From contig CAWGTX010000006.1 of the NCBI GenBank assembly GCA_963825585.1, positions 963,905-1,027,904 of the forward strand: 64,000 bases of DNA, in the 5' to 3' direction. A program made the position numbers and the translations under genes. Positions 5,431 to 63,705 of this stretch are shown one piece after another. The notes below the pieces were generated by a model. That model saw nothing but the letters and a program-made list of their open reading frames with translations. It did not search any database and was not told where the DNA came from. The stretch is from an uncultured bacterium. Its GTDB lineage: Bacteria > Actinomycetota > Acidimicrobiia > Spongiisociales > ZC4RG35. How positions within the stretch are numbered: the stretch's first letter is position 1; each line of letters starts with the position of its first letter.

Positions 5431-5916
5431 TCACGACGACGTGAAGTATCGGCTGCGGAAGTAGCCGAGTGCCGCTGCCTCCGTGTCGCCCACGGAGAGT
5501 CGTTCCACCAACCCGAGGAAGATCAGGTGGTCGCCGCCCTCATACGTGGCGTGCGAACTGCACTCGAACGTCGCCAGCGCCCCCGGCAGGACCGGGAGTC
5601 CGGCGTGGCCAGGGGCCCAGTCGATACCGTCGAACCGGTCGACACCCTTGGCGGCGAAACGGATGGACAGATCCTCCTGCTCGGCTCCCAGCACGTGGAC
5701 GACGAAGCCGTTGTCGGCGGTGAACGCATCGAGGTTGGCGGAACTCCTGCCGAGCGAGAACTGAACCAGCGGCGGGTCGAGCGACACCGAGACGAAGGAG
5801 TTGGCGGTCAACCCCGAGGGAACGCCGTCGGCGTCGAGGGTGGTGACGATCGTCACCCCGGTCATGAACTGGCCGGCGGCGTTTCGGAACTCGCGCGGTT
5901 CGATCTCGTGTTCCAC
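5431..5916 (-). CDS. Flavin reductase-like (FMN-binding split-barrel) NAD(P)H:flavin oxidoreductase
   Basis: FRNAAGQFMTGVTIVTT...SFVSVSLDPPLVQFSL, typical of the HpaC/flavin reductase domain. Confidence 0.85.
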   Translation of the reverse strand: MEHEIEPREFRNAAGQFMTGVTIVTTLDADGVPSGLTANSFVSVSLDPPLVQFSLGRSSANLDAFTADNGFVVHVLGAEQEDLSIRFAAKGVDRFDGIDWAPGHAGLPVLPGALATFECSSHATYEGGDHLIFLGLVERLSVGDTEAAALGYFRSRYFTSS

Positions 5917-7006: not shown

Positions 7007-8319
7007 CGGGGCCCGTCTGGTTCGGGACCGAGCGGCGGGGCCGGCGAATTCCGGAGCGTGCCCGCCCAGGCGGCCACTGCGGCCACATACCGATCCACGT
7101 CGCCATCGGTGATCTCCAGGGAGAGCGCGATGAACCCGCGCCTCGCGACGTAGAAGCCGGCGGCGAGGCTGGCGAAGAACCACAAGTGCCGGAGGCGTTC
7201 GTCGCCACCGACCAGGTCGTCGACCGACCGCACCGGCCCGGCGACCGGATGAACCGTGAGGATCGAGCCGACGCCAGTGGCGCACATCCCCACGGGGGCG
7301 AGCACCTCTTCGAGTCTCGCCCTGAGGTGGTCACCCCGGGCGTTGAGGGCGACCAGACGCTCGTCGTCGAGCACCTCCCCGATGGCGGCCACGCCGGCCG
7401 CCATCGAGACCACGTTGTTGTTGAAGGTCCCGGCGTGGGCCAACGATCCTCCGGTTGCCGGGTCGTACGCCGCCATGATGGAGCGTCGCCCGCCAAAGGC
7501 ACCGAAGGTCATTCCACCGGCGAGATACTTGCCGAGGGTGGTCATGTCGGGGAGCACCCCGGTGAGCTGCTGGCATCCACCCGGTGAGAGGCGGCTCGTC
7601 ATCACCTCGTCGAACACCAGGATGGCACCGTGCCGGTCACACAGCTCGCGAAGCCCCTCCAGAAAACCCGGCCCAGCCGGGATACACCCCGACGACCCTT
7701 GCATCGGCTCCACCACCACGCACCCGATGTCATTGCCGGACTCCGACATCAGCTGATCGCACGACTCCAGGTCGTTGAACCGGGCGATCGACCACCGGTG
7801 CGGCACGTTCACCTCGCGCCCATTCGACCCGAACGTCAGAACGCCACCGTGATAGCCGCCATCGAAGACGAGCACACCGCTGCGGCCGGTGTGATGGAGG
7901 GCGGTGGCGATGGCCATCAGGTTGGCCTCGGTGCCGGAGTTGGTGAAGCGCACCTGCTCGATCGATGGGAAACGACCCACGATCAGCTCGGCGAGACGAA
8001 CCTCGTCCTCGTGGACGGCGCCGTAGGCGATGCCCCGATCGACGGCCTTGTGAATGGCGCCGGTGATGTCGACCGGTGAGTGCCCGAACAGCCCGGCGGT
8101 GTAGTTGCCCAGCAGATCGATGTAGGTGTGGCCCTCGGCATCGTGGAGGTGTTTCCCCTCTGCCTGCGTGACCCGGATGGGGAACGGATCGACGTGCAGC
8201 ACCGTGCGCGTGTTGCCGCCGGGCATGACCGCCGAGGCCCGCTCCCACCAGCTCCGGCACACGGGATGAGCCGCCACGTACCGCTCATTTGCGGCGCCGA
8301 CCAGCCGATCGAGGTCCAT
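7003..8319 (-). CDS. Class-III (PLP) aminotransferase, glutamate-1-semialdehyde aminomutase-like
   Basis: GGNTRTV...AEGxHLHDAEGHTYIDLLGNY...FTNSGTEANL...VFDEVMTSR, a class III aminotransferase pattern. Confidence 0.85.
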   Translation of the reverse strand: MDLDRLVGAANERYVAAHPVCRSWWERASAVMPGGNTRTVLHVDPFPIRVTQAEGKHLHDAEGHTYIDLLGNYTAGLFGHSPVDITGAIHKAVDRGIAYGAVHEDEVRLAELIVGRFPSIEQVRFTNSGTEANLMAIATALHHTGRSGVLVFDGGYHGGVLTFGSNGREVNVPHRWSIARFNDLESCDQLMSESGNDIGCVVVEPMQGSSGCIPAGPGFLEGLRELCDRHGAILVFDEVMTSRLSPGGCQQLTGVLPDMTTLGKYLAGGMTFGAFGGRRSIMAAYDPATGGSLAHAGTFNNNVVSMAAGVAAIGEVLDDERLVALNARGDHLRARLEEVLAPVGMCATGVGSILTVHPVAGPVRSVDDLVGGDERLRHLWFFASLAAGFYVARRGFIALSLEITDGDVDRYVAAVAAWAGTLRNSPAPPLGPEPDGPR

Positions 8320-8389
8320 ACCGCGACTCTATCCTGCCGTCACGGGCGCCAACGCCGGAAGGCTTGGGGCGAACCACTACATTGCAGCC

Positions 8390-9283
8390 GTGAGCAAGCA
8401 CCCATGGACGTGGATCTGGCTGGCTGCGCTCGGGTTCGCCATCGGCTTCCCACTCATGAAGGTGATGTTCGAGTCCGGAATGGACGTGTGGCAGATCCTC
8501 GTCCCCCGATATCTGATCGGCACCGCCGTGATCGCCCTCATCGCCCGGTCGCGTTCGTTCGACTGGCGGGCTCCCGGAGCCATCCGCCGGGGTGCGGTAC
8601 TCGGGATCGTCAACGTCGCCGCGCCCACCATTCTCATGAGCCTCGGTACCGACCTGCTCCCCTCATCGGTGGCCGGGGTGCTGACCGCATTCATCCCGAT
8701 GGCCACGGTGGCCGCCGCTCACGTCGCCGTGCCGGGCGAACGCTTCTCGGTGCGGAGAGTCCCCGGTCTCATGCTGGCAACGGCCGGCGTGGTGCTGCTG
8801 GTGGTAGCCGGGCGGGGCGACGACGGCGCTCGGATCTCTCTGCTCGGGGTGATCCTGTTTCTGATCGGCGTGTCCCTGGCAGGCGTCGGTGGCGCCCTCA
8901 ACCGACGCTTTGCGATGGGAACTCCGGCGACCTCTCTCGTGCTGCCGCAGTTCGTGGGCGCCATGGCGGTGGTCACCTTCATCGGGTTGCCACTCGGCGG
9001 TAGCCGGCTGTCCGGTCTCTCCGGCGTCCAGTGGAGCCAGGTGGTGGTGTTCGGACTCGTGTGCACCGCCCTGCCGTTCTTCGCACTCCTCAAGGCCTCC
9101 GAGCTGGCTTCGGCCGCCAGGGCGTCGCTCATCGGCTACATCGTCCCGCTGCTGGCCGCCGTGATGGCGGTCTTCTTCCTGGGTGACCCCGCCTCGAACG
9201 CCCTGATGTTCGGTGGTGGCCTGATAGTGGCCGGCGTCTACGCGGCCGACCGGGCGGAGCGCCGCCTGGTACTCGCAGGCTGA
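8390..9283 (+). CDS. EamA/DMT-family transporter (10 TM)
   Basis: Two EamA-like halves, hydrophobic throughout. GTG start. Confidence 0.8.
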   Translation: MSKHPWTWIWLAALGFAIGFPLMKVMFESGMDVWQILVPRYLIGTAVIALIARSRSFDWRAPGAIRRGAVLGIVNVAAPTILMSLGTDLLPSSVAGVLTAFIPMATVAAAHVAVPGERFSVRRVPGLMLATAGVVLLVVAGRGDDGARISLLGVILFLIGVSLAGVGGALNRRFAMGTPATSLVLPQFVGAMAVVTFIGLPLGGSRLSGLSGVQWSQVVVFGLVCTALPFFALLKASELASAARASLIGYIVPLLAAVMAVFFLGDPASNALMFGGGLIVAGVYAADRAERRLVLAG

Positions 9284-13505: not shown

Positions 13506-15269
13506 ATGTCCGCAGCCGTACCGAGCGACATCGACATCGCTCGCGCCGCCACCTTGCAGCCGATCAGTGCCATCGCCGAACGCATCGGGCTCGAGCCCGA
13601 CGAGCTCATCCCCTACGGAACGACCAAGGCAAAGGTCAATCTCGACGCACTCAAGCGGATCGCCGGCCGCCCCCGCGGCAAGTATGTGGACGTCACCGCC
13701 ATCACGCCCACGCCCCTCGGCGAGGGCAAGACCACCACCACGATCGGCCTCACCCAGGGCCTCGGCCGGTTGGGCCATGAGGCGATCGCCTGCATCCGCC
13801 AGCCTTCGATGGGCCCCACCTTCGGGATCAAGGGCGGCGCCGCCGGCGGCGGCTACAGCCAGGTGGTGCCGATGGACGAGTTCAACCTCCACCTGACCGG
13901 CGACATCCACGCCATCACCGCCGCCCACAACCTGGTGGCTGCCGCCATCGATGCCCGCTGGTACCACGAGAGTCGCATGTCCGACGAGGCACTCGAGAAG
14001 GTGGGACTGAGCCGCCTCGGCATCGACGTGTTCAACCTGCAGTGGAACCGGGTGATGGACATCAACGACCGGGCGCTCCGCAACGTGATCGTCGGCCTCG
14101 GCGGCTCGCTGGAAGGCCGCCCCCGCGAGACCGGGTTCGACATCACCGTGGCCTCCGAACTGATGGCGATCCTCGCCCTGGTCGACGGCGACAACTACGC
14201 CAGCGCCCTCCGCAACCTCCGCGAACGCGTTTCCCGGGTGGTGATCGGCAACTCGAAGACGGGCACTCCGATCACTCTGGAGGACCTGGGTGTGGCCGGA
14301 GCCGTGACGGTTCTCATGAAGGACACTCTTCACCCCACGATCATGCAGACCATCGAGGGCCAGGCCGCCTTCGTCCACGCCGGTCCGTTCGCCAACATCG
14401 CCCACGGCAACTCCTCGATCCTGGCGGATCGCCTCGCCCTCCACCTCGGCGACTACGTGATCACCGAGTCCGGATTCGGTGCGGACATGGGCATGGAGAA
14501 GTTCATGGACATCAAGTGCCGCACCTCGGGTCTGCGGCCCGACTGTGTGGTGCTGGTCGCCACCGTGCGGGCGCTCAAGACCCACGGCGGAGGCCCCAAG
14601 GTGGTGCTCGGTCGGCCGCTCGACAAGGCGTACACCGAGGAGAACCTGGCACTGCTGCAGGCAGGCATGCCCAACCTGGCCGCCCACATCAAGAACGCCA
14701 AGCGATTCGGCGTCCCGGTGGTGGTGGCCATCAACAGCTTCCCCACCGACACCTGGGCAGAGATCAACGCCATCCGTGAGGCAGCACTGGAAGCCGGCGC
14801 GTCGGACGCGGTGCTCGCCGAACACTGGGGCAAGGGCGGCGAGGGCGCCACCGACCTGGCTGCTGCCGTGGTGAAGGCGTGTGAGGAGCCGAACGAGTTC
14901 GCCTACCTGTATCCGCTGAACATGTCGATCAAGCAGAAGATCGAGATCATCGCCAAGGACATCTACGGCGCCGCCGACGTCGAGTACTCCCCCGCCGCCG
15001 AAGCCCAGATCGCCGGATTCGAGAAGGCAGGATTCGGCTACCTGCCGATCTGCATGGCCAAGACCCATCTGTCCATCAGCCACGACGCCAACCTCAAAGG
15101 CGCCCCCACCGGCTTCACGGTGCCGGTACGCGAAGTACGGGCGTCGGTCGGCGCCGGGTTCATCTACCCCCTGTTGGGTGAGATGCGCACCATGCCCGGC
15201 CTCGGGTCGACCCCGGCCTACATGAAGGTCGACATCGACGACGACGGCAACGTCGTCGGTCTCTTCTAG
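13506..15269 (+). CDS. fhs: Formate--tetrahydrofolate ligase
   Basis: PTPLGEGKTTTTIGL, EFNLHLTGDIHAITAA, FANIAHGNSS. GAGGAGG SD upstream. Confidence 0.95.
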   Translation: MSAAVPSDIDIARAATLQPISAIAERIGLEPDELIPYGTTKAKVNLDALKRIAGRPRGKYVDVTAITPTPLGEGKTTTTIGLTQGLGRLGHEAIACIRQPSMGPTFGIKGGAAGGGYSQVVPMDEFNLHLTGDIHAITAAHNLVAAAIDARWYHESRMSDEALEKVGLSRLGIDVFNLQWNRVMDINDRALRNVIVGLGGSLEGRPRETGFDITVASELMAILALVDGDNYASALRNLRERVSRVVIGNSKTGTPITLEDLGVAGAVTVLMKDTLHPTIMQTIEGQAAFVHAGPFANIAHGNSSILADRLALHLGDYVITESGFGADMGMEKFMDIKCRTSGLRPDCVVLVATVRALKTHGGGPKVVLGRPLDKAYTEENLALLQAGMPNLAAHIKNAKRFGVPVVVAINSFPTDTWAEINAIREAALEAGASDAVLAEHWGKGGEGATDLAAAVVKACEEPNEFAYLYPLNMSIKQKIEIIAKDIYGAADVEYSPAAEAQIAGFEKAGFGYLPICMAKTHLSISHDANLKGAPTGFTVPVREVRASVGAGFIYPLLGEMRTMPGLGSTPAYMKVDIDDDGNVVGLF

Positions 15270-15274
15270 ACGCC

Positions 15275-15394
15275 ATGCTGGCCGGCGTGACGGTGGACGT
15301 GAGCGACCTGGACCGCTCGAGAGCGTTCTATGCGACCGTCTTCGGCGTGCACGCCCTCCGCCGTGGCCCGTCACCGGAACTGGTGGTCAATTGA
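15275..15394 (+). pseudogene. Remnant (39 codons) of a glyoxalase/VOC-family gene
   Basis: MLAGVTVDVSDLDRSRAFYATVFGVHALRRG..., a typical VOC N-terminal beta-alpha-beta start, then stop after 39 aa. Overlaps the end of the convergent gene. Confidence 0.4.
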
Positions 15395-15791
15395 TGGCGA
15401 GCGCGGTCGTGAACACTGCGCCGATGGTGGCCATCGCCCCCACCTGCGACAGTATGAATGTCCGGGTCTGCGCTCTGAGCTCGCTGCCGAACGACTCGGA
15501 CTGCGCCCGCAAGGCCTCGAACACCATGTCCAGTCGCATTTCGACCCGCTCCATCCGCACCTCGAGCGCATCCATCCGCGCCTCGAGCGCATCCATCCGC
15601 ACTCCGAGGGCTGCGACCCTCGTCTCGAGCCCGTCGATACGGGTGCCCAGTGCGTCGGTGTCCGACCGGGTGGCCAGGTCGATCCCCTCCGGGGCGGGGA
15701 GAGCGCGCATGAGCGTCTCGGCATGCCGTTCGCCGAGAACCTCGGCCAGCTTCTGGCGCAACGCCTGTCGCGGATCAGCCATCGTTGTCAT
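15387..15791 (-). CDS. Small coiled-coil protein with C-terminal TM anchor; contains three 21-bp coding tandem repeats
   Basis: Start MTTMADPRQALRQKLAEVL with GGAGG SD. RMDALEARMDALEVRMERVEMRLD repeats; C-terminal hydrophobic segment. Confidence 0.5.
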   Translation of the reverse strand: MTTMADPRQALRQKLAEVLGERHAETLMRALPAPEGIDLATRSDTDALGTRIDGLETRVAALGVRMDALEARMDALEVRMERVEMRLDMVFEALRAQSESFGSELRAQTRTFILSQVGAMATIGAVFTTALAIN

Positions 15792-16182
15792 GGATCGTAC
15801 CTCCGGCCCTCCCGAAGCGAACGTACGAAACGGATGTGACAGAATCGGAGCAGCGAGGAGCGCGGGGCGAGGAGCGAGGAGCCGGAAGTCTGGACCGGCA
15901 GCCGAGGCGGACCAGCAGATACGCCGCCAGGCGGATCTGCAACCCGGCGCTTGCGCCGGGCGGCGTCTGTTCGGCGGGCGTCGACGAGGTGAACCCGTCA
16001 CCGTGCGGGCCGAAGTCGGCGCATAAGAAGTGAAGAGTTCGACGACAATGAAGACACGAGGGCGGCAGCCCGGGCGGACCAGCGTCTGTTCCGCCCGGCG
16101 TCAACCCACATCGGCAACATGATCCGGCAAGACGACGGCGCGGGGCGGAAGTCCGCCCGCAATAGAAAGGAGGTGATCAGAG

Positions 16183-18081
16183 ATGTCACGACGTCCACGT
16201 TTGGCGACACCATTGGTGCGTGAGGATGGGGTGCTTCGCCCGGCGAGCTGGGAGGAGGCGATCCGGCGCGCAGCCGACGGCTTCCAGGCCGTGCGGAGCG
16301 AGCACGGTCCGATGGCGTTGGGGATGTTCAGTTGTTCGAAGGCGACCAACGAGACCAACTACCTGGCGCAGAAGTTCGCACGGACCGCATTGGGCACGAA
16401 CAACATCGATTCCTGTAACCGCACTTGACACGCTCCCAGCGTCACCGGTCTGGTGGCGGTTCTCGGAGTTGGTGGCGGTACGAGTTCCTATGAGGAGATC
16501 GAGAACACCGATCTGATCATCCTCTGGGGTTCGAACGCGCGCAATGCCCATCCGATCTTTTTTCACCATCTCCTGAAGGGGGTGCACAACGGCGCACGTT
16601 TGTACACCGTCGATCCCCGCCGGAGCGAGTCGGCGCAGTGGGCCGACGTGTGGCTCGGCATCGACGTGGGTTCTGACATCGCCCTGGCCAACGCCATGGC
16701 GAAGGTGATCATCGATGAGGGTCTGGCGCACATGCCGTTCATCGAGAAGGCCACCACCGGTTTCGACGAGTACCGGGCGAACCTCGAGTCGTTCACGCTG
16801 GATCGGGCGGCCGGGATCACGGGGATCCCTGCCGAGGTGATCCGGGAGATGGCGATTGCATATGCGACGGCCGAGACGGCGCAGATCTGTTGGACGTTGG
16901 GGATCACCGAGCATCACAACGCCACCGACAACGTGCTGGCGCTGATCAGCCTGGCGTTGTTGACGGGGCACGTGGGCCGGTACGGGTCGGGGCTGGTCCC
17001 GATCCGTGGTCAGAACAACGTTCAGGGCGGCGGCGACATGGGTGCGCTGCCGAACAAGCTCCCTGGTTTCCGGGATGTGGAGAGCGATGCCGACCGGGCC
17101 GATTTCGAGGCGGTGTGGGGCCGTCCGATTCCTCCCAAGCGTGGCTGGCATCTGACGCAGATGTTCGAGGCCATGGAGGCGGGCAAGCTGCGGGCGCTGT
17201 ATGTGCTGGGCGAGAACCCGGCACAGTCGGAGGCGGATTCGCATCACACGAAGCGACGGCTGGAGGCACTGGATTTCATGGTGGTGCAGGACATCTTCCT
17301 GACGAAGACGGCCGAGATGGCCGACGTGGTGTTCCCGGCTGCCGCCGATTGGTGCGAGGGCGAGGGAACGGTCACGTCGTCGGAGCGTCGGGTGCAGCGG
17401 GTTCGTGCTGCGCTGACTCCGCCGGGTGAGGCCAGAACCGACATCGAGATCCTGTCGATGATGGCCGAAGCGCTCGATGCCGGGTGGGGCCGCCCGTCCG
17501 CCGAGGAGGTGTGGGACGAGCTGCGGAGCCTGTCTCCACCGCATCGGGGCATGAGTTATGCCCGGTTGGAGGAGTTGGGCGGCATCCAGTGGCCGTGTCC
17601 CGACGAGTCGCATCCGGGCAGCCAGTTCCTCCACGCCCGCCTGTGGGAGGATCACGTGGTGAATCCGGCGCCGTTCTTCCCCGTCGAGTGGGCTCCCCCG
17701 GTCGACCAGCTGAGCGACGAGTTCCCGCTTCGGATGACGACGGGGCGGCATCTCGACGGCTACAACACCGGTGTTCAGTCGGGTGGTTTCGATTCGCCGA
17801 TCCGGATCGGTTGCACCATCGACGTGTCTCCCGAGGACGCGGAACGTCTGGATCTGACTCCGGGTGAGATCGTGTCGGTGTGGTCGCGCCGGGGCGACAT
17901 CGAAGCTCCGGTTCGGATCGATCCGGGTCTGCGGCCCGGGCTGACGTTCATGGCGTTGCACTATCCCGACGACATCGACATCAACGAACTGACCATCGAG
18001 GCCTGGGATCCGAAGTCGGGAACCGCCGAGTTCAAGGCGACGGCCATCCGGATCGAGAAGCTGTCGGTGCCGGTGCGATGA
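16183..18081 (+). CDS. Formate dehydrogenase alpha subunit, catalytic Mo-bisPGD (MopB) part only. Contains in-frame UGA (16426..16428), a candidate selenocysteine. Lacks the N-terminal Fe-S domains.
   Basis: TNETNYLAQKFARTALGTNNIDSCNRT-[TGA]-HAPSVTGL...NTDLIILWGSNARNAHP aligns with FdhF/FdsA around Sec140. Strong SD aaaggaggtgatcagagATG. Confidence 0.8.
16441..16457 (+). promoter_or_regulatory. Candidate bacterial SECIS hairpin downstream of the in-frame UGA
   Basis: 12 nt after UGA: gucacc-GGUCU-gguggc (6-bp stem incl. one G.U, GGUCU apical loop), resembling the E. coli fdhF SECIS apex. Confidence 0.5.
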
Positions 18082-18169
18082 TCACCAGCACCACGGCCAC
18101 CAACCCGCGCTCTGGGGACGAAATCGACCGTCTGACGGTCGTTTCTGTCCCCAGTTGGGAGGAGAGGGC

Positions 18170-19900
18170 GTGGATCTGAAGCTGATCGGTGCCGAGGCGA
18201 CGCCCGAGGAGGTTGCGGCCATCGCCGCTGCCGTCCCGGCGGCCGAAACCGTGGACCTGGCTGGTCGGGTGGTCCGTACCGAATGGACGTCGCTGCGACA
18301 CCACCTGCTGCCGGCGCTCGATGCCGTCCAGTCCAGCATCGGATACGTCAGCACGGGGGCGGTCGACGAGATCGCTCGCCGTTTGCACGTGCCGCCGGCC
18401 GAGGTGTTCTCGGTGGCGTCGTTCTACGCCCTGATCGCCTTGGAGGAGTCCCCGCCGACGGTGGCTCACATCTGCGACGACACCGCCTGCCGCCTGGCCG
18501 GCGGAGCCTCGTTGCTGGCGTCGCTCGACGGCCGTGACGACGTCCACCCCACCCCCTGCATCGGTCAGTGCGACCGGGGCCCTGCCGCCTTCATCCAGCG
18601 GGCGGGCGAAGACGACCTGGTGGTCACGGCGGCGACCCGGGACGATCTGCTGGCGGTACTCGCCGGGGCCGAGAGCGAGCCGCCGCTCCCCTACATCGTC
18701 GGCGACCGGCTCCTTCAGCACGTCAACACGACCGACCCCGAGGATCTGGACTCCTACTGCTCCCGTGACGGGTACACGGCTCTGGCGCATGCCGTGGAGC
18801 TCGGTCCCGACGGTGTGATCGCCGAGATGAAAGCCTCGAATCTGCGGGGCCGCGGCGGCGCCGCCTTCCCCACCGGTGTGAAGTGGGAGGCGGTGCGAAA
18901 CCAGCCGGCCCAGCCGAAGTACGTGGCCTGCAACGCCGACGAGTCCGAGCCCGGAACGTTCAAGGACCGGGTGATCATGGAGGGCGACCCGTTCGCCCTC
19001 ATCGAGGCGATGACCATCGCCGCCTTCACCGTCGGGGCCGAGCATGGGTTCATCTACATCCGGGGCGAGTACCCGGTGGCGACCCGCCGGCTTCGCAACG
19101 CCATCGCCCAGGCCGAGGCCGCCGGTCTGCTGGGCGACGACGTGATGGGCACCGGCTTGGCGTTCCATCTGGAGGTACGGCGGGGTCAGGGCGCATACAT
19201 CTGCGGCGAGGAAACGGCGCTGTTCAACTCGATCGAGGGCTTTCGCGGTGAGCCGCGCCAGAAGCCGCCGTTCCCGGTGGAGTCCGGCCTGTTCGGAAAG
19301 CCCACGCTGCTGAACTCGGTGGAGACCTTCGCCAACGTCGCCTGGATCCTCAGCAACGGTGGCGCCGCCTTCGCCGCCATGGGCACGCCGGAGTCCACCG
19401 GTACCCGCCTCATGTGCCTGTCGGGCGACGTCGCCCGTCCCGGCGTCTACGAGGAGCCGTTCGGCACCACCCTGCGTTCGGTGTTGGGGCAGGCGGGCGG
19501 AGTGGTGGGCGAGCTGCGGGCGATCCTGCTGGGCGGCGCCGCCGGTACCTTCGTTGGGCCGGACATGCTCGACGTGCCACTGTCGTTCGAGTCGGCTCGC
19601 GCCAACGGCTTCTCGCTCGGTTCGGGGGTGGTGATGCCGTTCAACACCACCCGCGACATGGGCGACATCGTGGCCCGGATCGCCCGGTTCTTCCGTGACG
19701 AGAGCTGCGGGCAATGTGTCCCCTGCCGGGTGGGCACCGTGCGGATCGAGGAGGCGGTGGGTCGGGCCCGGGCCGGGAAGGGTGTCGACATCCCGCTGAT
19801 CGTGGAGATGGACCGGGCCATGAAGGACTCGTCGATCTGCGGGTTGGGCCACACGGCCTCGTCGGCGGTGCTGAGCGCCATGAGGATGGGGTTGGTATGA
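18170..19900 (+). CDS. Fused FdsG-FdsB (NuoE-like 2Fe-2S + NuoF-like FMN/NADH-binding 4Fe-4S) subunit of NAD-dependent formate dehydrogenase
   Basis: NuoE-type CxxxxC...CxxxC (CDDTACRLAGG...CIGQCDRGPA), then NuoF GRGGAAFPTGVKWE, ESEPGTFKDR, CGQCVPCRVGT. GTG start with GGGAGGAGAGG SD. Confidence 0.85.
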   Translation: MDLKLIGAEATPEEVAAIAAAVPAAETVDLAGRVVRTEWTSLRHHLLPALDAVQSSIGYVSTGAVDEIARRLHVPPAEVFSVASFYALIALEESPPTVAHICDDTACRLAGGASLLASLDGRDDVHPTPCIGQCDRGPAAFIQRAGEDDLVVTAATRDDLLAVLAGAESEPPLPYIVGDRLLQHVNTTDPEDLDSYCSRDGYTALAHAVELGPDGVIAEMKASNLRGRGGAAFPTGVKWEAVRNQPAQPKYVACNADESEPGTFKDRVIMEGDPFALIEAMTIAAFTVGAEHGFIYIRGEYPVATRRLRNAIAQAEAAGLLGDDVMGTGLAFHLEVRRGQGAYICGEETALFNSIEGFRGEPRQKPPFPVESGLFGKPTLLNSVETFANVAWILSNGGAAFAAMGTPESTGTRLMCLSGDVARPGVYEEPFGTTLRSVLGQAGGVVGELRAILLGGAAGTFVGPDMLDVPLSFESARANGFSLGSGVVMPFNTTRDMGDIVARIARFFRDESCGQCVPCRVGTVRIEEAVGRARAGKGVDIPLIVEMDRAMKDSSICGLGHTASSAVLSAMRMGLV

Positions 19901-20853
19901 CCGACATGGTCACCATCACCGTCGATGGCTCGCCGGTGTCGGTCCGCGCCGGTGCCACCCTGCTGGAGGCGTGTCGTTCGATCGGAAGCGACCAGCCGAC
20001 GCTGTGCTACCTCGAGACCCTGACCCCGGTGAACGTGTGCCGGGTGTGTGTGGTCGAGGTGGAGGGCAGCCGCACCCTGGTGCCTTCCTGCTCCCGGCCC
20101 GCCGAGGAGGGAATGGTGGTGCAGACCGACTCGGAACGGGTGAGACTGAGCCGCAAGGTGGTCTTCGAGTTCCTGGCGTCGTCGGTGGACATGTCGCTGG
20201 TGAACGCCGAGACCAAGGGTTGGATGTCGGAGTACGGATGTGATCCCGACCGTTTCGGACCGCCCGCTCCCCCGGTCACCGACCGCGACCGCCGCCGGAG
20301 TGGACACCACCACCCCGCCGACGGCATGGTCGTCGAGACGGTCCACCAGCCGGTCAAGGTGGACAACCAGCTCTATGTCCGCGACTACAGCCGCTGCATC
20401 CTCTGTTACAAGTGCGTGGAGGCGTGCGGCGAGGACGCCCAGAACACCTTTGCCATCGCCGTGGCGGGGCGCGGGTTCGATGCCCGCATCTCGACCGAGT
20501 TCGACACCGGTCTCACCGACTCGGCCTGCGTGTTCTGCGGCAACTGCGTGGGAGTCTGTCCCACCGGGGCGCTCATGTTCCGTTCCGAGCATGAACTCCG
20601 GAACGCCGAGATGTGGCATCCGGAGGACCAGACCGTCACCCGCACCGTCTGCTCGTACTGCGGTGTGGGGTGCAACCTGGAGTTGCACGTCCAGGACAAC
20701 CGGATCGTGAAGGTGACCTCCCCGCAGGACCATTCGGTCACCGAGGGCCACCTGTGTATCAAGGGCCGCTTCGGATACGAGTACGTCCAAGAACTGGGCG
20801 ATCTCGCCATGACCCCAATCGACGAGGTACTGGCGCGGGCGCGCCAGTCTTGA
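19897..20853 (+). CDS. Formate dehydrogenase alpha subunit, N-terminal Fe-S part (2Fe-2S, His/Cys 4Fe-4S, two ferredoxin-type 4Fe-4S, and the MopB N-terminal 4Fe-4S domain), 318 aa
   Basis: 2Fe-2S Cys pattern; CILCYKCVEAC, CVFCGNCVGVCP, CSYCGVGCNLELH...GHLCIKGRFGYEYVQ. ATG overlaps the upstream stop (ATGA). Confidence 0.85.
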   Translation: MTDMVTITVDGSPVSVRAGATLLEACRSIGSDQPTLCYLETLTPVNVCRVCVVEVEGSRTLVPSCSRPAEEGMVVQTDSERVRLSRKVVFEFLASSVDMSLVNAETKGWMSEYGCDPDRFGPPAPPVTDRDRRRSGHHHPADGMVVETVHQPVKVDNQLYVRDYSRCILCYKCVEACGEDAQNTFAIAVAGRGFDARISTEFDTGLTDSACVFCGNCVGVCPTGALMFRSEHELRNAEMWHPEDQTVTRTVCSYCGVGCNLELHVQDNRIVKVTSPQDHSVTEGHLCIKGRFGYEYVQELGDLAMTPIDEVLARARQS

Positions 20854-20885
20854 TCGCCTCCCGCAGGCCGCCATGCCAGAACCAC

Positions 20886-20932
20886 AACTGGGGACGGAAT
20901 CGACACCTGATGGGTCGACTTCGTCCCCAGTT
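20886..20932 (+). terminator. Hairpin after the FDH Fe-S gene
   Basis: Perfect 11-bp stem aactggggacg / cgtccccagtt with a 25-nt loop containing an inner gtcgac stem. No U-tract. Confidence 0.45.
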
Positions 20933-21132
20933 CGGGTTTGGAGGTCTCCTCGGAGGTTCAGACGGCGAGCGGGAGACGCTCTGTGGATGCGCGATGAACG
21001 CTCGTTCTGGAGTCTCCCTGCGCACTGGCCTCGCGGCCGCAGGCACACAGGAACGAGGTGATGTCACCATCGTGGCGACGTTCGACGCCTCTCACCTGAT
21101 AATCGGCGATCAGGACTTCGTGACTGTACGTA

Positions 21133-21315
21133 TCACACCAGACTCGGAACACGCTCCACCACCTCTTCCGGCGCCGGGGAAGCCTCGTTGGCCGCGGCAC
21201 GGCGGGCACGGCGCTGCCTCACGGCATCGGCGACGTCGCGAGCGCGATCCGCCAAGCGATGGGCTTCTTCGATCTGGGTCACTGCCAGGTAGTACAACAT
21301 CTGCGGGTGCGACAC
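21133..21315 (-). CDS. Small hypothetical protein (60 aa)
   Basis: GTG start with AAGGA SD; high GC3. Could equally be non-coding. Confidence 0.25.
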   Translation of the reverse strand: MSHPQMLYYLAVTQIEEAHRLADRARDVADAVRQRRARRAAANEASPAPEEVVERVPSLV

Positions 21316-21438
21316 GTTCGTTCCTTTTCATCGAGTTACTCTCCGGATCCTGTCGGCAGATCGCCGCCATGATTCAGAGCAGTAATGGCTCTTAACCTCT
21401 ATACCCCTTACTATACCTGAGCTAGAGTAATACCTCAA
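21316..21438. promoter_or_regulatory. Unusually AT-rich divergent promoter region with short direct repeats (ctatacc x2)
   Basis: taatggctcttaacctctataccccttactatacctgagctagagtaatacctcaag; GC content far below genome average. Confidence 0.4.
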
Positions 21439-21996
21439 GTGGACTTTTCTCATTACAGCAGCGCCCCGTTGGGACTGGTGGTCGAGCTCGTCAACACCGA
21501 CGGCAAGCTCGTAGACCGGCGCGACTCCCTCATGTTCCTGCCGGATCTCGAGTCGTTCCTCGACCGCCATCTCGACATCTGGATGGAGGACTCCCGGCCT
21601 CCGACCGAGAGCGATGTCGAGCCGGTTCGGGCACTGCGGCGTGCCCTTCGGACGGTGTTCGAGGCCACCGATCCCGACCAGGCGGCCGCCATCATCAACC
21701 AGATCCTCGCCGAGAACGGCGCTGCTCCCCGGGTCTCGACGCACGGCGGTGCGCCCCATCTCCACTTCGAGACGCCGGGTACCAGCTTCTCGCGATGGTT
21801 GGCCGTCGTTGCCGCCATGGGGCTGGCCACCGTTGTCGTCGACCAGGGCATCGGACGGCTGGGAGTCTGCGCCTCGGCTGACTGCCACGACGTGTTCCTC
21901 GACACCTCACGTAATCGATCCCGACGCCACTGCTCCTCGACCTGCTCGACCCGCGAGAACGTGGCTGCCTACCGCAAGCGACACAGAACGGCATGA
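21439..21996 (+). CDS. ABATE-domain / CGNR zinc-finger protein (putative stress-responsive regulator)
   Basis: C-terminal CASADCHDVFLDTSRNRSRRHCSSTCSTRENVAAYRKRH, the CGNR zinc-finger motif. GTG start. Confidence 0.75.
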   Translation: MDFSHYSSAPLGLVVELVNTDGKLVDRRDSLMFLPDLESFLDRHLDIWMEDSRPPTESDVEPVRALRRALRTVFEATDPDQAAAIINQILAENGAAPRVSTHGGAPHLHFETPGTSFSRWLAVVAAMGLATVVVDQGIGRLGVCASADCHDVFLDTSRNRSRRHCSSTCSTRENVAAYRKRHRTA

Positions 21997-23765
21997 CCTC
22001 GCCGGGAGTCGGCGCCCGCTTCGATGACCTGCGGCCCCGCCGACGCAGATCATTCCAACTCGACGGCCTGGTCGAGGTGTTCGAGGCAACCTCGCTCGAC
22101 GAGGTCGGTGACGTGATCGCCCGAGCAGACCGCGCCGTTCGTGCCGGCCGGTGGGTGGCCGGGTGGGTCGCCTACGAGGCAGCACCGGCCTTCGACCCGG
22201 CAATGACGGTGCGAGACACCGACCGCACCACTCTCGGCGAACTCCCGCTTGCCTGGTTCGGAGCGTTCGAATCGCGCGGTCCCACCGACCGCACCCCACC
22301 CGGCACCTACCGGCTCGGGCCGTGGGAGCCAACGGTGTCGGCGGACCAGCACGCAGCAGGTGTCGACGCCATTCGCCGCCACATCCGCAACGGCGAGACG
22401 TACCAGGTCAACTACACATTCAGGCTGCAGTCCGAGTTCGACGGTGACGCCATGGCGCTGTATCGCGAGCTCTCACAGTCACAGAACACGGCCTATGGCG
22501 CTTTCATCGACACGGGACGCTGGGTGGTTGCCTCAGCCTCCCCCGAGCTCTTCCTCGAGTGGCGCCACGGGCGCATCTCATCCAAACCGATGAAGGGCAC
22601 TACTGGGAGGGGTCTCGACATCGCCGACGACGAGGCGAGACGCTCGTGGCTGGAGCACTCGGAGAAGAACCGCGCCGAGAACCTCATGATCGTGGACATG
22701 GTCCGCAACGACCTCGGGCGGGTCGCCCGCACAGGCAGCGTCAAGGTCCCGGCGCTCTTCACCACCGAGAAGTACGACACCGTCTGGCAGCTGACGTCCA
22801 CCGTGGTCGCCGACCCCCGCCCCGGGACGGATCTGCTCGCCGTCTTCGCCGCGCTGTTCCCGTGCGCTTCGATCACAGGAGCTCCGAAGGTGGCCACCAT
22901 GCGTATCATCGCCGACCTCGAGTCCGACCCGCGCGGCGTGTACTGCGGTGCCATCGGGTTCGGGGGCCCTGGCACCGACGGCGAGCCGCAGTGGGCTTTC
23001 AACGTCGGCATCCGAACCGTCCTGGCCGATCGCCACACGGGTCGTGCCTGGTACGGGACCGGCGGCGGTGTCACCTACGACTCGACCCCCGAGGACGAGT
23101 ACCAGGAGGCGCTCCTCAAAGCTCAGGTGCTGGCCCGGCGCTCGGCGGACTTCTCGCTCCTCGAGACCATGCGGTGGGATCCGGTGGGCGGGTTCCGTCA
23201 CCTGAACCGGCACCTCCACCGACTGTCCGACTCCGCCTGGTACTTCGATGTTCCGCTCGACCCCGCCGAGGTGCGAACGGCGCTCGAACGGGCCACCCGC
23301 GGTCACGAAGCGGCGCTGCGGGTTCGACTGCTGGTCGACCGCACTGGCTGGGTGGCGGTGGAATCCGAGCCCGCCCCTCCCCGGCCGTCCCGGCCCATCA
23401 GGCTGGCGATCGACACAGTGCCGGTCGACCCCGAGGACCCGTTCCTACGACACAAGACAACCAACCGCCGTACCTACGACGAGGCACTCCGGCGACACCC
23501 CGACGCCGACGACGTCGTGCTGTGCAACACGAAGGGCGAGGCCACCGAGACCGCCATCGCCAACCTTGCGGCCCTCATAGACGGTCAGTGGCGCACACCG
23601 CCACTGGCATCCGGTTGCCTCGCCGGGGTGGAACGGGCCGTTGCGCTCGACCAGGGACGGCTGGTGGAACAACCGGTCCTCGTCACCGAACTGGTAGGCG
23701 CTGATGCGGTCGTACGCCTGAATGCCCTCCGGGGTTGGGAGCCCGCCGTGCTCATCGGCGCGTGA
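21993..23765 (+). CDS. pabB: Aminodeoxychorismate synthase component I fused to aminodeoxychorismate lyase (class-IV fold)
   Basis: Chorismate-binding signatures (PELFLEW, SSKPMKGT, IVDMVRNDL, FPCASITGAPK, YCGAIGF); C-terminal fold-IV lyase domain. ATGA overlap with the upstream gene. Confidence 0.85.
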   Translation: MTSPGVGARFDDLRPRRRRSFQLDGLVEVFEATSLDEVGDVIARADRAVRAGRWVAGWVAYEAAPAFDPAMTVRDTDRTTLGELPLAWFGAFESRGPTDRTPPGTYRLGPWEPTVSADQHAAGVDAIRRHIRNGETYQVNYTFRLQSEFDGDAMALYRELSQSQNTAYGAFIDTGRWVVASASPELFLEWRHGRISSKPMKGTTGRGLDIADDEARRSWLEHSEKNRAENLMIVDMVRNDLGRVARTGSVKVPALFTTEKYDTVWQLTSTVVADPRPGTDLLAVFAALFPCASITGAPKVATMRIIADLESDPRGVYCGAIGFGGPGTDGEPQWAFNVGIRTVLADRHTGRAWYGTGGGVTYDSTPEDEYQEALLKAQVLARRSADFSLLETMRWDPVGGFRHLNRHLHRLSDSAWYFDVPLDPAEVRTALERATRGHEAALRVRLLVDRTGWVAVESEPAPPRPSRPIRLAIDTVPVDPEDPFLRHKTTNRRTYDEALRRHPDADDVVLCNTKGEATETAIANLAALIDGQWRTPPLASGCLAGVERAVALDQGRLVEQPVLVTELVGADAVVRLNALRGWEPAVLIGA

Positions 23766-30900: not shown

Positions 30901-32427
30901 TCAGCCGACTCCACCTTCCGCGGTTCTCCTGCCGATGAAGTCGTGGAGCTCTGCGGCAGTGGCGTCGTCGAGCGGTGGCGGTTCGAAGTCGGCCAGGACC
31001 TGCTTGTAGACCCGGTGGGCGCGCTGGTCGGCCGTGAGACCGCCCGCTAGCTGCCAGTTCTCGAAGTTCTGCCAGTCCGACACGATGGGCGCGTAGAAGG
31101 CGGTTTCGTAGCGCTCGAGGGTGTGTGCCGACCCGAAGAAATGGCCGCCCGGCCCGACGTCGCCGATGGCGTCGACCGCCAGTTCCGCGGTGTCGATCTT
31201 GAGCGGCTGCATGACCTCGGCCATCATCTGGAGGAGTTCCACATCGATGACGAACTTCTCGAAGCTGGCCACCAGCCCGCCTTCCATCCACCCTGCACCA
31301 TGCATGACCAGGTTGGCGTGGCCCATGACCGCTCCCCACAGCGACATCTCGGACTCGTAGGCGGCCTGGGCATCGACTGCGTTGGAGGCGTTGGCATTCG
31401 ACGAGCGGTACGGGATCCCGTACCGCCGCGCCAGCTGGCCACCTGCCAGGGCCGCCCTCGTGTACTCGGGGGTACCGAACGCCGGGGCGCCCGATCTCAT
31501 GTCGACATTGGATGTGAATCCGCCGTAGACCACCGGAGCGCCCGGGTTGACCATCTGGGTGAACGCCAGACCGGCCAGAGCTTCGGCATTCTGCTGGGCC
31601 AGGGCCCCGGCGATGGAGGCGGGCGCCATCGCTCCTGACAGCGTGAACGGTGTGATCACCACAACCTGGTTCATGCGGGCCATCTCGATGAGCCCTTCGA
31701 TCATGGGCCCGTCGAGACGCAGCGGCGACGACGTGTTGATGATGGTGAAGAGGGACGGCTCGGCCGATAGCTGCTCTCTGGTGATTCCGCGCCCGATCCT
31801 CACGATCTCGAGCGCGTCGATGATCCGCCCTCGTCCCAGCGAGTAGGCGTGGAACACCTTGTCGGTGAGCGTGATGAACGAACCGAGCCCCGCCAGATGC
31901 CTGGTGGCGGGTGGGAGGTCGATTGGTTCCACCGGATACCCGCCAAACAGGTGGACGATGTTGAACGCCTGTCCGAGCCGCAGGAAGTCCTGGAAGTGGG
32001 CGAAGGTGCCGGGTCGGCGGCCGCCATCGAGCGACGACGAGTTCGGGGCGCTCGCCACCGAACAGAAATTGACGTTCGTGCCTCCGACGGCGAGATTGTG
32101 AGCAGGGTTGCGGGCGTGCATCGTGAACCCGGCGGGAGCCTTGGAGACGAGGTCGAGGACCAACTCACGATCGAATCGGACCCGCTCGGTTCCCGCCTCG
32201 ACGTCGGCGCCGTTGGCGGCGAGGATCTCCAGCGCCTCCGGATGGAGGAAGTCCATGCCGATCCGCTCCAGAATCTGGAGCGAGGCGTCGTGGATGGCCT
32301 CGATCTGGTCGTCCGCGAGAACGTCCATCGGCCGGAAGGGATTGGTCAGATTCCGCCACGGCAGCTGATGGAGACCGGCGCCCCGGCTGGCCCGTCGACC
32401 GGCCCGGGTGGAGCTTTCACGTGGCAT
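30901..32427 (-). CDS. Trimethylamine methyltransferase (MttB) family, non-pyrrolysine type (quaternary-amine:corrinoid methyltransferase-like)
   Basis: Full-length MttB fold with no in-frame amber. No corrinoid protein or MtxA partner in the window. Confidence 0.9.
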   Translation of the reverse strand: MPRESSTRAGRRASRGAGLHQLPWRNLTNPFRPMDVLADDQIEAIHDASLQILERIGMDFLHPEALEILAANGADVEAGTERVRFDRELVLDLVSKAPAGFTMHARNPAHNLAVGGTNVNFCSVASAPNSSSLDGGRRPGTFAHFQDFLRLGQAFNIVHLFGGYPVEPIDLPPATRHLAGLGSFITLTDKVFHAYSLGRGRIIDALEIVRIGRGITREQLSAEPSLFTIINTSSPLRLDGPMIEGLIEMARMNQVVVITPFTLSGAMAPASIAGALAQQNAEALAGLAFTQMVNPGAPVVYGGFTSNVDMRSGAPAFGTPEYTRAALAGGQLARRYGIPYRSSNANASNAVDAQAAYESEMSLWGAVMGHANLVMHGAGWMEGGLVASFEKFVIDVELLQMMAEVMQPLKIDTAELAVDAIGDVGPGGHFFGSAHTLERYETAFYAPIVSDWQNFENWQLAGGLTADQRAHRVYKQVLADFEPPPLDDATAAELHDFIGRRTAEGGVG

Positions 32428-32528
32428 GACGGCAGGTTACCCCGCCTTCCCGTCATGTGGAACGGTTCCACGAAGTGGACCAGGAGCGGCGTGTGGTCAG
32501 GGCGATGTCGACGCCGCTGGATGAAGGG

Positions 32529-35856: not shown

Positions 35857-37009
35857 CGTGTTCGCGCAGCATCGCCCGGCTGATGATGTGGCGTTGGATC
35901 TCCGAGGTGCCGTCCCAGATCCGCTCGACCCTGGAATCACGCCAGAACCGTTCGAGCGGGAGCTCGTCCATCAAACCCATGCCACCAAGGATCTGGATGG
36001 CCTCGTCGGTGACGAAGGCGAGCATCTCGGTGGACACCAGCTTGGCCATGGCGGCGTCACTGTCGGTCATGGTCCCCTGGTCGGCCTTCCACGCCGCCCG
36101 GTAGGTGAGCAACTCGGCGGCTGCGAGCTGGGCGGCCATGTCGGCGAGCTTGAACGAGACGCCCTGGAACTTGCCGATCTGCTGGCCGAATTGGCGGCGG
36201 TTGGCGGCCCACTCTGTGGCGATGGAGATGGCCCGGTCGGCCCGGCCGAGCGAGGTGGCCGCCACCTGCAGGCGGGTGGCGCCGAGCCAGGTGTTGGCGA
36301 CGTCGAAGCCGCGGTGCTCCTCGCCGAGGATCTGGCTCACCGGGACCCGGCATCCGTCGAAGGTGAGGATCGAGTTGTGATAGCCGCGGTGGCTCACCGA
36401 GTTGTACCCCTTCTGCACCTCGAAGCCGGGGGTTCCAATGTCGACGAGGAAACTGGTGATCAGCTTGCGCGGGCCCCGCGGGGTGTCCTCCTCCCCACTG
36501 GCGGCGAACAGGATCACGTAGTCGGCCAGATCGGCGTGGCTGATGAAGTGTTTGGTCCCGGTGATCACGTACTCATCGCCGTCCCGCACCGCCCGGCACT
36601 TCATCCCGCGCACGTCGGACCCGGCATCGGGCTCGGACATCGCCAGGCATTCGACCCGCTCGCCGCGGATGGTCGGCAGCAGGTAGCTGTCGATCTGGTC
36701 GCCGACGCAGGCCCGCAGGATGTTCGATGGCCGGGCCACCACGTACTGCAGCCCGTACGACGTCTTGCCGAACTCCCGCTCGATGAGGGCGATCGTCAGG
36801 TTGTCGAGCCCTCCCCCACCCAGCTCCTCGGGCATGTTGGCGGCGTAGATCCCCGCCTCGAGCGATTTCCGCTTGATCTGCTCGACCAGCTCGGGCCGGA
36901 CGTCCCCGGTCTTCTCGACCTCGTCCTCGTACGGCATCAGTTCCTTCTCCACGAAGGCCCTGACCACGTCCACGATCATCTTCTGTTCGTCAGTGATCGA
37001 GAAGTTCAT
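35849..37009 (-). CDS. Acyl-CoA dehydrogenase
   Basis: ACAD N/M/C domain signatures. Start MNFSITDEQKM with GAGG SD. Confidence 0.9.
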   Translation of the reverse strand: MNFSITDEQKMIVDVVRAFVEKELMPYEDEVEKTGDVRPELVEQIKRKSLEAGIYAANMPEELGGGGLDNLTIALIEREFGKTSYGLQYVVARPSNILRACVGDQIDSYLLPTIRGERVECLAMSEPDAGSDVRGMKCRAVRDGDEYVITGTKHFISHADLADYVILFAASGEEDTPRGPRKLITSFLVDIGTPGFEVQKGYNSVSHRGYHNSILTFDGCRVPVSQILGEEHRGFDVANTWLGATRLQVAATSLGRADRAISIATEWAANRRQFGQQIGKFQGVSFKLADMAAQLAAAELLTYRAAWKADQGTMTDSDAAMAKLVSTEMLAFVTDEAIQILGGMGLMDELPLERFWRDSRVERIWDGTSEIQRHIISRAMLREHGG

Positions 37010-37016
37010 TCCGTAC

Positions 37017-37075
37017 CTCTTGTCCCCCACGAAGTGGGGGAAGGGGCCCCCACGAAGTGGGGTAGGGGGGTGGAG
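37017..37075. repeat. Solo copy of the GC-rich hairpin element seen at 6112..6336
   Basis: tgtcccccacgaagtgggggaaggggcccccacgaagtggggtaggggggtgg; two cccccac-gaa-gtggggg hairpins. Confidence 0.8.
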
Positions 37076-37091
37076 AACCCGTCCGAAAGCG

Positions 37092-39496: not shown

Positions 39497-39532
39497 GATG
39501 TCTCCCTCGCCCGAGCTACATGTCCCGACAGT

Positions 39533-63686: not shown

Positions 63687-63705
63687 GTGTACTCCTGATC
63701 GATGG

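Follow-up and report, generated by a model that had tools for sequence, protein, structure and literature searches.

The 64-kb window analysed here (the whole stretch of DNA, about 67% GC, with its closest relatives among Acidimicrobiia genomes) contains three adjacent genes on one strand, genes 1 to 3 (Table 1). They probably encode a soluble, three-polypeptide, NAD(+)-linked formate dehydrogenase (FDH) with a molybdenum or tungsten bis-pyranopterin guanine dinucleotide (Mo- or W-bisPGD) site, and they belong to a large, conserved and uncharacterised clade found across hundreds of species of uncultured bacteria. The alpha subunit of this predicted enzyme is divided between two genes. Gene 1 encodes the catalytic body of the MopB fold, gene 3 encodes an iron-sulfur (Fe-S) subunit that ends with the proximal [4Fe-4S] domain (FS0), and a diaphorase gene lies between them. 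The kind of enzyme is known, and what appears to be new is its architecture: FS0 supplied in trans, inverted gene order, no A4 cluster, and a selenocysteine (Sec) codon at the active site in every homologue. As far as could be established, it is the first MopB-family enzyme with the proximal 4Fe-4S cluster and the pterin site on different polypeptides. A full-text literature search found no FDH described with FS0 on a separate subunit, nor such a gene order; an earlier description may still exist.

The position of the cut is given by alignments. Residues 5-299 of gene 3 align to residues 25-305 of FdsA from Rhodobacter capsulatus (6tg9_A), and residues 4-625 of gene 1 align to residues 306-932 of the same chain. 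Residue 4 of gene 1 also corresponds to residue 59 of Escherichia coli FdhF. The NCBIfam model of FDH alpha subunits, TIGR01591 (Fdh-alpha; 672 positions, curated equivalog cutoff 666.25 bits), is covered from positions 1 to 51 by gene 3 residues 250-300 (60.7 bits) and from positions 50 to 672 by gene 1 (649.6 bits). Each piece alone scores below the cutoff, and their sum, 710 bits, exceeds it. Because the alignments abut both on FdsA and on TIGR01591, genes 1 and 3 are exact complements, and these alignments place the cut where the FS0 domain meets the remainder of the MopB fold. A search of the window for a second copy of a MopB gene or of an Fe4S4 domain found none.

An earlier note, made from the letters of the window, had proposed an alpha subunit encoded as two genes in swapped order around an FdsG/FdsB-like fusion, and had suggested alignment to FdhF and FdsA as a check that the junction coincides. 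Pfam content and the alignments to FdsA and TIGR01591 bear the proposal out, and the junction does coincide, at FdsA 305/306. The note spoke of a "circularly permuted order". Strictly, the segments are two genes parted by a third of 1.7 kb, so this is not a circularly permuted protein, but a fission with inverted gene order.

Gene 1 matches the Pfam families Molybdopterin (PF00384, 230.7 bits) and Molydop_binding (PF01568, 80 bits), and the Pfam scan found no Molybdop_Fe4S4 domain (PF04879) in it. Its best solved relatives are FdhF of the hydrogen-dependent CO2 reductase (HDCR), E. coli FdhF and FdsA. Of the features that mark FdhF/FdsA catalytic subunits, gene 1 has the Sec-His motif, the active-site Arg, and the MopB and dinucleotide-binding domains; an N-terminal FS0 domain on the same chain and a TIGR01591 score above the cutoff are lacking. 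Residues U82, H83 and R275 are invariant in the relatives aligned (63/63) and match Sec140, His141 and Arg333 of FdhF. R275 lies within PIRGQNNVQG (the FdhF R333 motif is PxRGQNNVQG), and 149 of the 632 gene 1 positions are invariant.

The start of gene 1 is well defined. AGGAGG sits 9 nt ahead of the ATG at 16183, and an N-terminal extension carrying an Fe4S4 domain is excluded because an in-frame TGA (16174-16176) lies 9 nt upstream of the start. A longer gene 1 reaching upstream was considered, and the same stop rules it out. The strong Shine-Dalgarno sequence of gene 1 and its lack of an N-terminal 4Fe-4S domain had been pointed out in the earlier note, which named a Cys motif upstream of 16183 as the finding that would overturn its view; none is there.

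The earlier note was right about the domain content of the catalytic portion, and had overlooked that its frame is interrupted by a TGA (16426-16428). This TGA is codon 82, within the motif DSCNRT*HAPS (pattern C-x-R-x-(U/C)-H-x-P-S), and it aligns with the "x" that marks Sec in the E. coli FdhF chain 1aa6_A. The codon is kept at this position in 72/72 gene 1 homologues. Nucleotide differences from relatives fall mainly at third codon positions, before as well as after the TGA, which argues that both sides are translated.

A predicted selenocysteine insertion sequence (SECIS) hairpin of 6-7 bp begins 11-12 nt past the UGA and carries an invariant loop, GGUCU (16447-16451). The SECIS element of E. 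coli fdhF is a hairpin after the UGA with a GGUC loop. Among 71 distinct sequences, pairing is found in 93% of cells, versus 30-67% in slid controls. Three apical pairs show compensatory double changes (CG->GC in 10 sequences, GC->AU in 7 and CG->UA in 3), and these changes alter the encoded amino acids (T..V, A..A and V..A). On these grounds gene 1 is identified as a predicted selenoprotein with UGA decoded as Sec under a SECIS element. Sec genes accompany the operon in some relatives, with all sel matches above curated cutoffs: tRNA-SeC and selD lie just upstream of gene 1 in one locus (L060), selD-selB-selA lie directly after gene 3 in another (L030), and selD is near the operon in six loci.

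Gene 2 contains the Pfam domains 2Fe-2S_thioredx (PF01257), Complex1_51K (PF01512), SLBB (PF10531) and NADH_4Fe-4S (PF10589), and it matches the NCBIfam family nuoF_fam with 435 bits. The motifs CxxxxC...CxxxC and CxxCxxC are present in its translation. By sequence, gene 2 is the putative diaphorase, consisting of a [2Fe-2S] domain joined to the subunit that would carry FMN, NAD(H) and a [4Fe-4S] cluster. The NuoF-like and NuoE/FdsG-like modules typical of FdsABG are both in this gene, so the FdsG-FdsB (NuoE+NuoF) fusion that the earlier note saw between the two halves is upheld by its four Pfam domains.

Gene 3 matches Fer2_4, Fer4_7 (a two-cluster 4Fe-4S ferredoxin domain) and Molybdop_Fe4S4 (78 bits), and it terminates 20 codons past the last of these. 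Its ligands are C37, 48, 51 and 65 for a [2Fe-2S] cluster, C167/170/173/177 and C211/214/217/221 for two ferredoxin-type [4Fe-4S] clusters, and C252/255/259/287 for the FS0 [4Fe-4S] cluster, with K289 as the equivalent of FdhF Lys44. All 16 Cys residues and K289 are invariant across 81 gene 3 sequences. The stop of gene 2 and the start of gene 3 share an ATGA at 19897-19900, a coupling also reported in the earlier note.

That note had further assigned a His/Cys cluster to gene 3. The 2Fe-2S, the two 4Fe-4S and the FS0 clusters of its list are all accounted for, and the His/Cys cluster is not: gene 3 has no HxxxCxxCxxxxxC motif and no PF10588 match. The region aligned to H117/C121/C124/C130 of FdsA from the R. 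capsulatus enzyme (RcFDH) reads SSVDMSLVNAETKG and contains no Cys. This His-ligated cluster, A4, is absent from all 81 members of the gene 3 family; fused relatives have PF10588. The Fe-S module therefore departs from that of FdsABG in lacking A4, while its 2Fe-2S and two ferredoxin-type clusters are present. In RcFDH, A4 lies at the dimer interface, off the main electron path (PMC7171172), so its loss need not break the electron wire. The loss suggests that the quaternary structure differs from that of RcFDH.

The arrangement is widely conserved. Relatives of gene 3 were collected in a scan with one genome per species; more than 550 species matched, and the best 80 loci were analysed. These loci come from Acidimicrobiia and other Actinomycetota, Acidobacteriota, Chloroflexota, Planctomycetota, Dormibacterota, Eisenbacteria, Myxococcota and Armatimonadota, and protein-database searches add Gemmatimonadota, which places the gene 3 family in at least nine phyla. 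Gene order was scored in the 73 related loci with enough flanking sequence. The order gene 1-gene 2-gene 3 on one strand is found in 72 of them, that is, in every locus that holds a gene 1 homologue, and three further loci from other assemblies have the same order. The 72 loci belong to Actinomycetota, Acidobacteriota, Chloroflexota, Planctomycetota, Dormibacterota, Eisenbacteria and Myxococcota, and they include megabase contigs and assembled chromosomes (OZ241841.1, OZ253507.1 and a 3.48-Mb contig).

The breakpoint is as constant as the order. Gene 3 homologues always end shortly past the Fe4S4 domain. Two protein-database searches gave more than 8000 matches (protein clusters) each, and the best 120 of each are 303-392 aa long, have no MopB domain and are in no case fused. 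The nearest fused relatives are 37-45% identical; family members across phyla are 58-82% identical. Pairwise identities of gene 1 and gene 3 are correlated (r = 0.77; shuffled maximum 0.13), which, together with the identities across phyla, fits co-inheritance and horizontal spread of the unit. The earlier note had proposed looking for the same order in related genomes and had taken a contiguous fdsA there as grounds for abandoning its view; the order recurs in 72/73 loci, and no contiguous fdsA occurs among the 80 best. The note's word "unusual" is justified against characterised enzymes and not as a peculiarity of this genome, because the family is widespread and conserved. In eight loci (L017, L029, L035, L041, L051, L065, L072 and L073), homologues of gene 1, 2 or 3 appear in shifted tblastn pieces or with an internal stop. 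Such broken copies in metagenome-assembled genomes (MAGs) are probably assembly indel errors rather than pseudogenes.

We infer that the three proteins assemble physically into one complex. Formate would be oxidised at the Sec-ligated metal site of gene 1 (U82, H83 and R275), where the metal may be molybdenum or tungsten. Electrons would then exit through FS0, which gene 1 lacks and which the last domain of gene 3 (55 residues, with Lys289) would supply in trans. Within gene 3 they would pass along the two ferredoxin-type clusters and the 2Fe-2S cluster; they would then reach gene 2, with its [4Fe-4S] cluster and FMN, and finally NAD+. Decoding of the UGA at 16426 would be SelB-dependent and directed by the hairpin at 16441-16457.

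Genes for maturation give indirect support. When the neighbouring genes of all loci were clustered, 24 loci proved to have an FdhD/NarQ-family gene immediately ahead of gene 1 or behind gene 3, and 17 to have a gene for a MobA-like nucleotidyltransferase immediately behind gene 3. Proteins of these two kinds are the expected maturation factors of FDHs with a bis-molybdopterin guanine dinucleotide (bis-MGD) cofactor. Their linkage in related loci is consistent with formate oxidoreductase activity and with a Mo/W-bisPGD site.

Several observations weigh against this interpretation. In one MAG of the Chthonomonadaceae (L070, Armatimonadota), the gene 3 homologue (8001-8951) is full length and 68% identical, and the 8 kb to each side of it contain no homologue of gene 1 or gene 2; this is the sole exception to the conserved order. 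In seven Chloroflexota loci (L034, L046, L052, L059, L060, L062 and L072), 0.6-3.6 kb separate gene 1 from gene 2. The spacers of L034, L059 and L060 contain unrelated genes only (methyltransferase, Na/Ca exchanger, glyoxalase and lytic transglycosylase), and a search of these three for maturation genes found none. Co-transcription of gene 1 and gene 2 is therefore not universal, and in the spacer-bearing Chloroflexota loci gene 1 must have transcription of its own. Folded alone, the SECIS region of the window is no better than shuffled sequence (z = 0.30), and an Rfam scan of 15300-21500 (E <= 1) gave no match and no curated SECIS, so the case for this element is built on covariation. No selA, selB, selC, selD, fdhD or mobA was found in the 64-kb window, and the Sec machinery, fdhD and mobA must accordingly be encoded outside the window. 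That the three proteins assemble is argued from sequence and synteny, and these data accommodate formate oxidation as well as CO2 reduction, and NAD as well as NADP.

The inferred direction of catalysis is informed by the genes nearby. A gene for formate-tetrahydrofolate ligase (FTHFS) precedes gene 1 in the window, and its product would be the functional partner that provides or uses formate. In most Acidimicrobiia loci an FTHFS gene immediately precedes the gene 1 homologue, and several other Actinomycetota loci have one close by on the other strand. Further genes of the window are those for an MttB-family methyltransferase, a DAO+GCV_T protein resembling dimethylglycine dehydrogenase (DMGDH), SoxA/SoxB-like subunits of sarcosine oxidase and a betaine-binding protein (OpuAC), as well as a carnitine-type cluster (BKACE/3-hydroxyacyl-CoA dehydrogenase/acyl-CoA dehydrogenase). 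This one-carbon (C1) and methylated-amine context points to formate oxidation. On the simplest reading, methyl groups are oxidised via tetrahydrofolate (THF) to formate and then to CO2, with a gain of NADH. Most likely, the enzyme burns formate that formate-THF ligase releases from the methyl groups of betaine, dimethylglycine and sarcosine.

It is rather unlikely that the same complex runs in reverse, as an NAD(P)H-dependent CO2 reductase that feeds FTHFS in C1 assimilation of the reductive glycine or methyl-branch type. The immediate FTHFS neighbour and the presence of the family in many lineages of unknown physiology would suit such a role, and Sec-containing metal FDHs work in both directions; CO2 reduction by RcFDH is cited in PMC8808070. 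However, the window is rich in methyl-oxidising, THF-linked enzymes and in betaine uptake, which yield C1 units for disposal. No CO2-fixation genes were seen in the 64 kb, and NAD-linked CO2 reduction is thermodynamically uphill.

Less probable still is that genes 2 and 3 form a self-contained HoxFU-like diaphorase, in which the Fe4S4 domain is a vestige resembling N7 and gene 1 uses another partner or makes loose or transient contact. NuoG- and HoxU-like Fe-S modules without MopB do exist, and gene 3 matches HoxU and the NiFe hydrogenase subunit 7t2r_A. The unrelated genes that part gene 1 from genes 2 and 3 in some Chloroflexota, and the solitary gene 3 of the Armatimonadota MAG, would also be accommodated. 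This explanation nevertheless leaves unexplained why the Fe4S4 domain of gene 3 matches the start of an FDH-specific model, TIGR01591, with 60.7 bits, and why the FdhF Lys44 equivalent is kept in 81/81 sequences. In addition, gene 1 begins on FdsA exactly where gene 3 ends, the two genes co-occur in 72/73 loci and co-evolve, and the window offers no second MopB or Fe4S4 to take their place.

An assembly or rearrangement artefact, or a decaying pseudogene inactivated by the TGA, is highly implausible. The in-frame stop of gene 1, its calling as two open reading frames (ORFs), and the frameshifted gene 1 or gene 2 pieces in six MAG loci (L017, L029, L035, L041, L072 and L073) could be read in this way. 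Against it stand the repetition of order and breakpoint in 72 independent species-level genomes, the invariance of the TGA at the catalytic position with a covarying hairpin after it, the third-position bias on both sides of the TGA, and the 149/632 invariant positions of gene 1. The earlier statement that the arrangement is no simple frameshift is thus sustained by the recurrence in megabase contigs and chromosomes and by the co-evolution of the halves.

Split inteins join protein halves irrespective of gene order, and it might be supposed that trans-splicing or translational recoding restores one FdsA-like chain; this is vanishingly improbable, since the poorly conserved tail of gene 3 past Fe4S4 amounts to 0-30 residues (rarely up to about 80) and gene 1 has about five before its homology begins, extensions far too short for intein halves, and since fusion by readthrough or frameshift, also considered, is impossible where the C-terminal part is encoded first.

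The closest known systems in module content are the FdsABG(D) enzymes of R. capsulatus and Cupriavidus necator (PDB 6TGA/6TG9). They share with the split enzyme the full set of modules, namely NuoE-like, NuoF-like, HoxU/NuoG-like Fe-S, FS0 and FdhF-like MopB. FdsA is the best solved match for gene 3, and both halves are colinear with it. The differences are considerable, and sequence identity to the FdsABG-type enzyme is only about 40%. FdsA is one 958-aa chain, which is here cut between 305 and 306 with the C-terminal piece encoded first. Its active site has Cys386 where gene 1 has Sec. FdsG and FdsB are separate and A4 is present in FdsABG(D), whereas here G and B are fused and A4 is missing. 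The fds operon has the order fdsGBACD (PMC7171172) with a single fdsA; here the order is MopB body, G/B fusion and Fe-S module, with no fdsC or fdsD in the operon. No fdsC/fdhD and no fdsD were found in the window as a whole.

The tungsten FDH1 of Methylobacterium extorquens (Fdh1AB; PDB 7VW6/7E5Z) is also NAD-linked, and its alpha subunit aligns to both halves. Like gene 2, its beta subunit joins NuoE and NuoF in one chain. The alpha subunit differs from genes 1 and 3 in being a single chain of about 990 aa with Cys instead of Sec and an unpermuted gene order. FdhF of E. coli and the HDCR FdhF of Thermoanaerobacter kivui (PDB 1AA6 and 7QV7) are the top-scoring solved relatives of gene 1 (472-500 bits) and share with it the Sec-His motif and the catalytic Arg. 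They have their own N-terminal FS0 (residues 1 to about 58), and their partners are hydrogenase modules, not a NuoEF diaphorase.

Division of an FDH into Fe-S and catalytic chains has precedents, at other boundaries. In FDHs of the HylCBA-FdhF2 type (Gottschalkia/Clostridium acidurici) and in others with a separate NuoG-like Fe-S subunit, the "Y-junction" Fe-S module is a polypeptide distinct from the catalytic subunit, and the two dock (PMC5736913). The cut in these enzymes is one domain earlier, and the catalytic subunit retains FS0. These enzymes are bifurcating and have extra clusters on the NuoF-like subunit, whereas gene 2 ends right past the NuoF 4Fe-4S motif. An electron-bifurcating enzyme of the Bfu/Hyl type was considered for the present operon and is excluded, because gene 2 has no extra ferredoxin domains. 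In formylmethanofuran dehydrogenase (FwdB/FwdD, or FmdB/D), the MopB catalytic unit is also naturally in two polypeptides; in M. wolfeii, an additional subunit replaces the C-terminus of the FdsA homologue (PMC7171172). That split is at the opposite end, with domain IV separate and FS0 with the body, and the complex and the substrate differ.

A likely evolutionary route can be outlined. The operon probably derives from one of the fdsG-B-A type, in which the adjacency of diaphorase and Fe-S modules was retained as the ATGA overlap while the MopB body was severed at the domain boundary and moved upstream. The tight coupling of gene 2 and gene 3 mirrors the fdsB-fdsA adjacency of fdsGBACD operons (order from PMC7171172). 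Tandem duplication of the operon followed by loss of the outer parts is a possible way to reach the present order. Alternatively, a chimeric origin is possible, since the scores of gene 1 are better with FdhF-type enzymes than with FdsA. Two proteins among the search results have related arrangements. One (P0133, 1405 aa) is a single ORF containing two consecutive FdsA-like units (Fe-S module + MopB + Fe-S module ...), which is the type of intermediate that a model of permutation by duplication needs. Another (P0128, 511 aa) looks like the C-terminal part of NuoF joined to a gene 3-like module ending past Fe4S4, that is, a gene 2-gene 3 fusion.

It is tempting, though doubtful, to regard FS0 on a separate polypeptide as a functional design and not as a neutral accident of rearrangement, with a Sec- and pterin-bearing body that is produced first, matures separately through FdhD and MobA, and plugs onto a pre-assembled Fe-S/diaphorase module only afterwards. 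If so, the wire would be completed only by the cofactor-loaded subunit, which would act as an assembly checkpoint or as an exchangeable "plug-in" catalytic module. Such a role would account for the preservation of the clade as a unit and for its horizontal spread across at least nine phyla, and the clade would then be a class of FDH that has so far gone unrecognised, is abundant worldwide and is consistently under-annotated.

The split also affects annotation. Gene callers break gene 1 at the UGA into pieces of 81 aa and about 543 aa, and the mechanical ORF listing of the window accordingly gives 16183-16428 (81 aa), 16453-18081 (542 aa), 18155-19900 and an ORF ending at 20853. Database labels for gene 3 include "HndD", "YjgC" and "2Fe-2S cluster-binding protein", and the names of the parts are generic or wrong. 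Because of the UGA-split calls, the halves below the family cutoff and the wrong labels of gene 3, metagenomic surveys probably under-count both formate-oxidising capacity and selenium dependence. The gene 3 family numbers over 8000 protein clusters, and over 550 species carry it, many of them from soil and marine lineages. The operon is no new kind of system, but an oddity of molybdoenzyme assembly that is conserved, abundant, testable and of practical importance for annotation. It provides a natural experiment on the assembly of the interface between FS0 and the pterin site and a ready-made modular design for engineering CO2/formate catalysts. For evolutionary studies, it is a clean case of fission and reordering at the level of an operon, fixed once and then spread horizontally.

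Other features of the operon and its surroundings are listed in Table 1. Gene 2 most likely starts at GTG 18170 and not at TTG 18155, as judged from a Shine-Dalgarno sequence, GGGAGGAG, at 18158-18165 ahead of the GTG and from alignments of homologues, which start at residue 6 of the TTG-start model.

Table 1. Features of the FDH operon and its neighbourhood, in window positions
Feature	Position	Strand	Remarks
FTHFS gene (formate-THF ligase)	13506..15269	+	Pfam FTHFS, 848 bits
Shine-Dalgarno AGGAGG, then in-frame TGA	16168-16173; TGA 16174-16176	+	Read from sequence
Gene 1	16183..18081	+	632 codons including predicted UGA-Sec at codon 82; MopB domains II-IV
Predicted SECIS hairpin	16432..16469	+	Apical stem 16441-16446/16452-16457; lower stem 16432-16436/16465-16469
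Palindromic hairpin, copy 1 (43 nt)	18112..18154	+	Gene 1-gene 2 spacer; dG -33.1 kcal/mol, z -4.8
Gene 2	18170..19900	+	NuoE/FdsG-like + NuoF/FdsB-like fusion; alternative start TTG 18155
Gene 3	19897..20853	+	Fe-S "wire" subunit
Palindromic hairpin, copy 2	20888..20930	+	35 nt past gene 3 stop; dG -36.1 kcal/mol, z -6.0
PabB-PabC fusion	21993-23765		
C1/methylated-amine genes	30901-32436(-), 35849-39610(-), 42855-45470(-), 55700-59791(+), 62673-63953(-)		

Two copies of a 43-nt hairpin, a near-perfect palindrome with the sequence CTGGGGACGrAATCGAC...GTCG..TTC.GTCCCCAG, flank genes 2 and 3, and they are the only ones in the window. The second copy is probably the 3' end structure of the operon. 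A search for this repeat in 80 related loci found none, so the hairpin is specific to the source genome and lies outside the conserved design. The hairpins may be a REP-like element, or a terminator or attenuator without a U tract that sets the expression of gene 1 apart from that of genes 2 and 3. A scan for sigma-70 promoters and terminators gave nothing beyond the chance level.

The spacer between FTHFS and gene 1 (15270-16182) is about 900 bp in the window, versus about 44 bp in close relatives (L082). It contains a possible minus-strand ORF (15387-16100, 237 aa, G+C fraction at third codon positions 0.76), for which a match to DUF7310 is sub-threshold only. Just past gene 3, a small minus-strand ORF is syntenic in close relatives, at about 20958-21327(-) in the window, 9023-9232(-) in L082 and 5706-5915(-) in another close relative, L083. 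It is 69 aa long in the relatives and has no Pfam match. In the window, this small ORF lies ahead of a gene for an ABATE/CGNR zinc-finger regulator (21439-21996).

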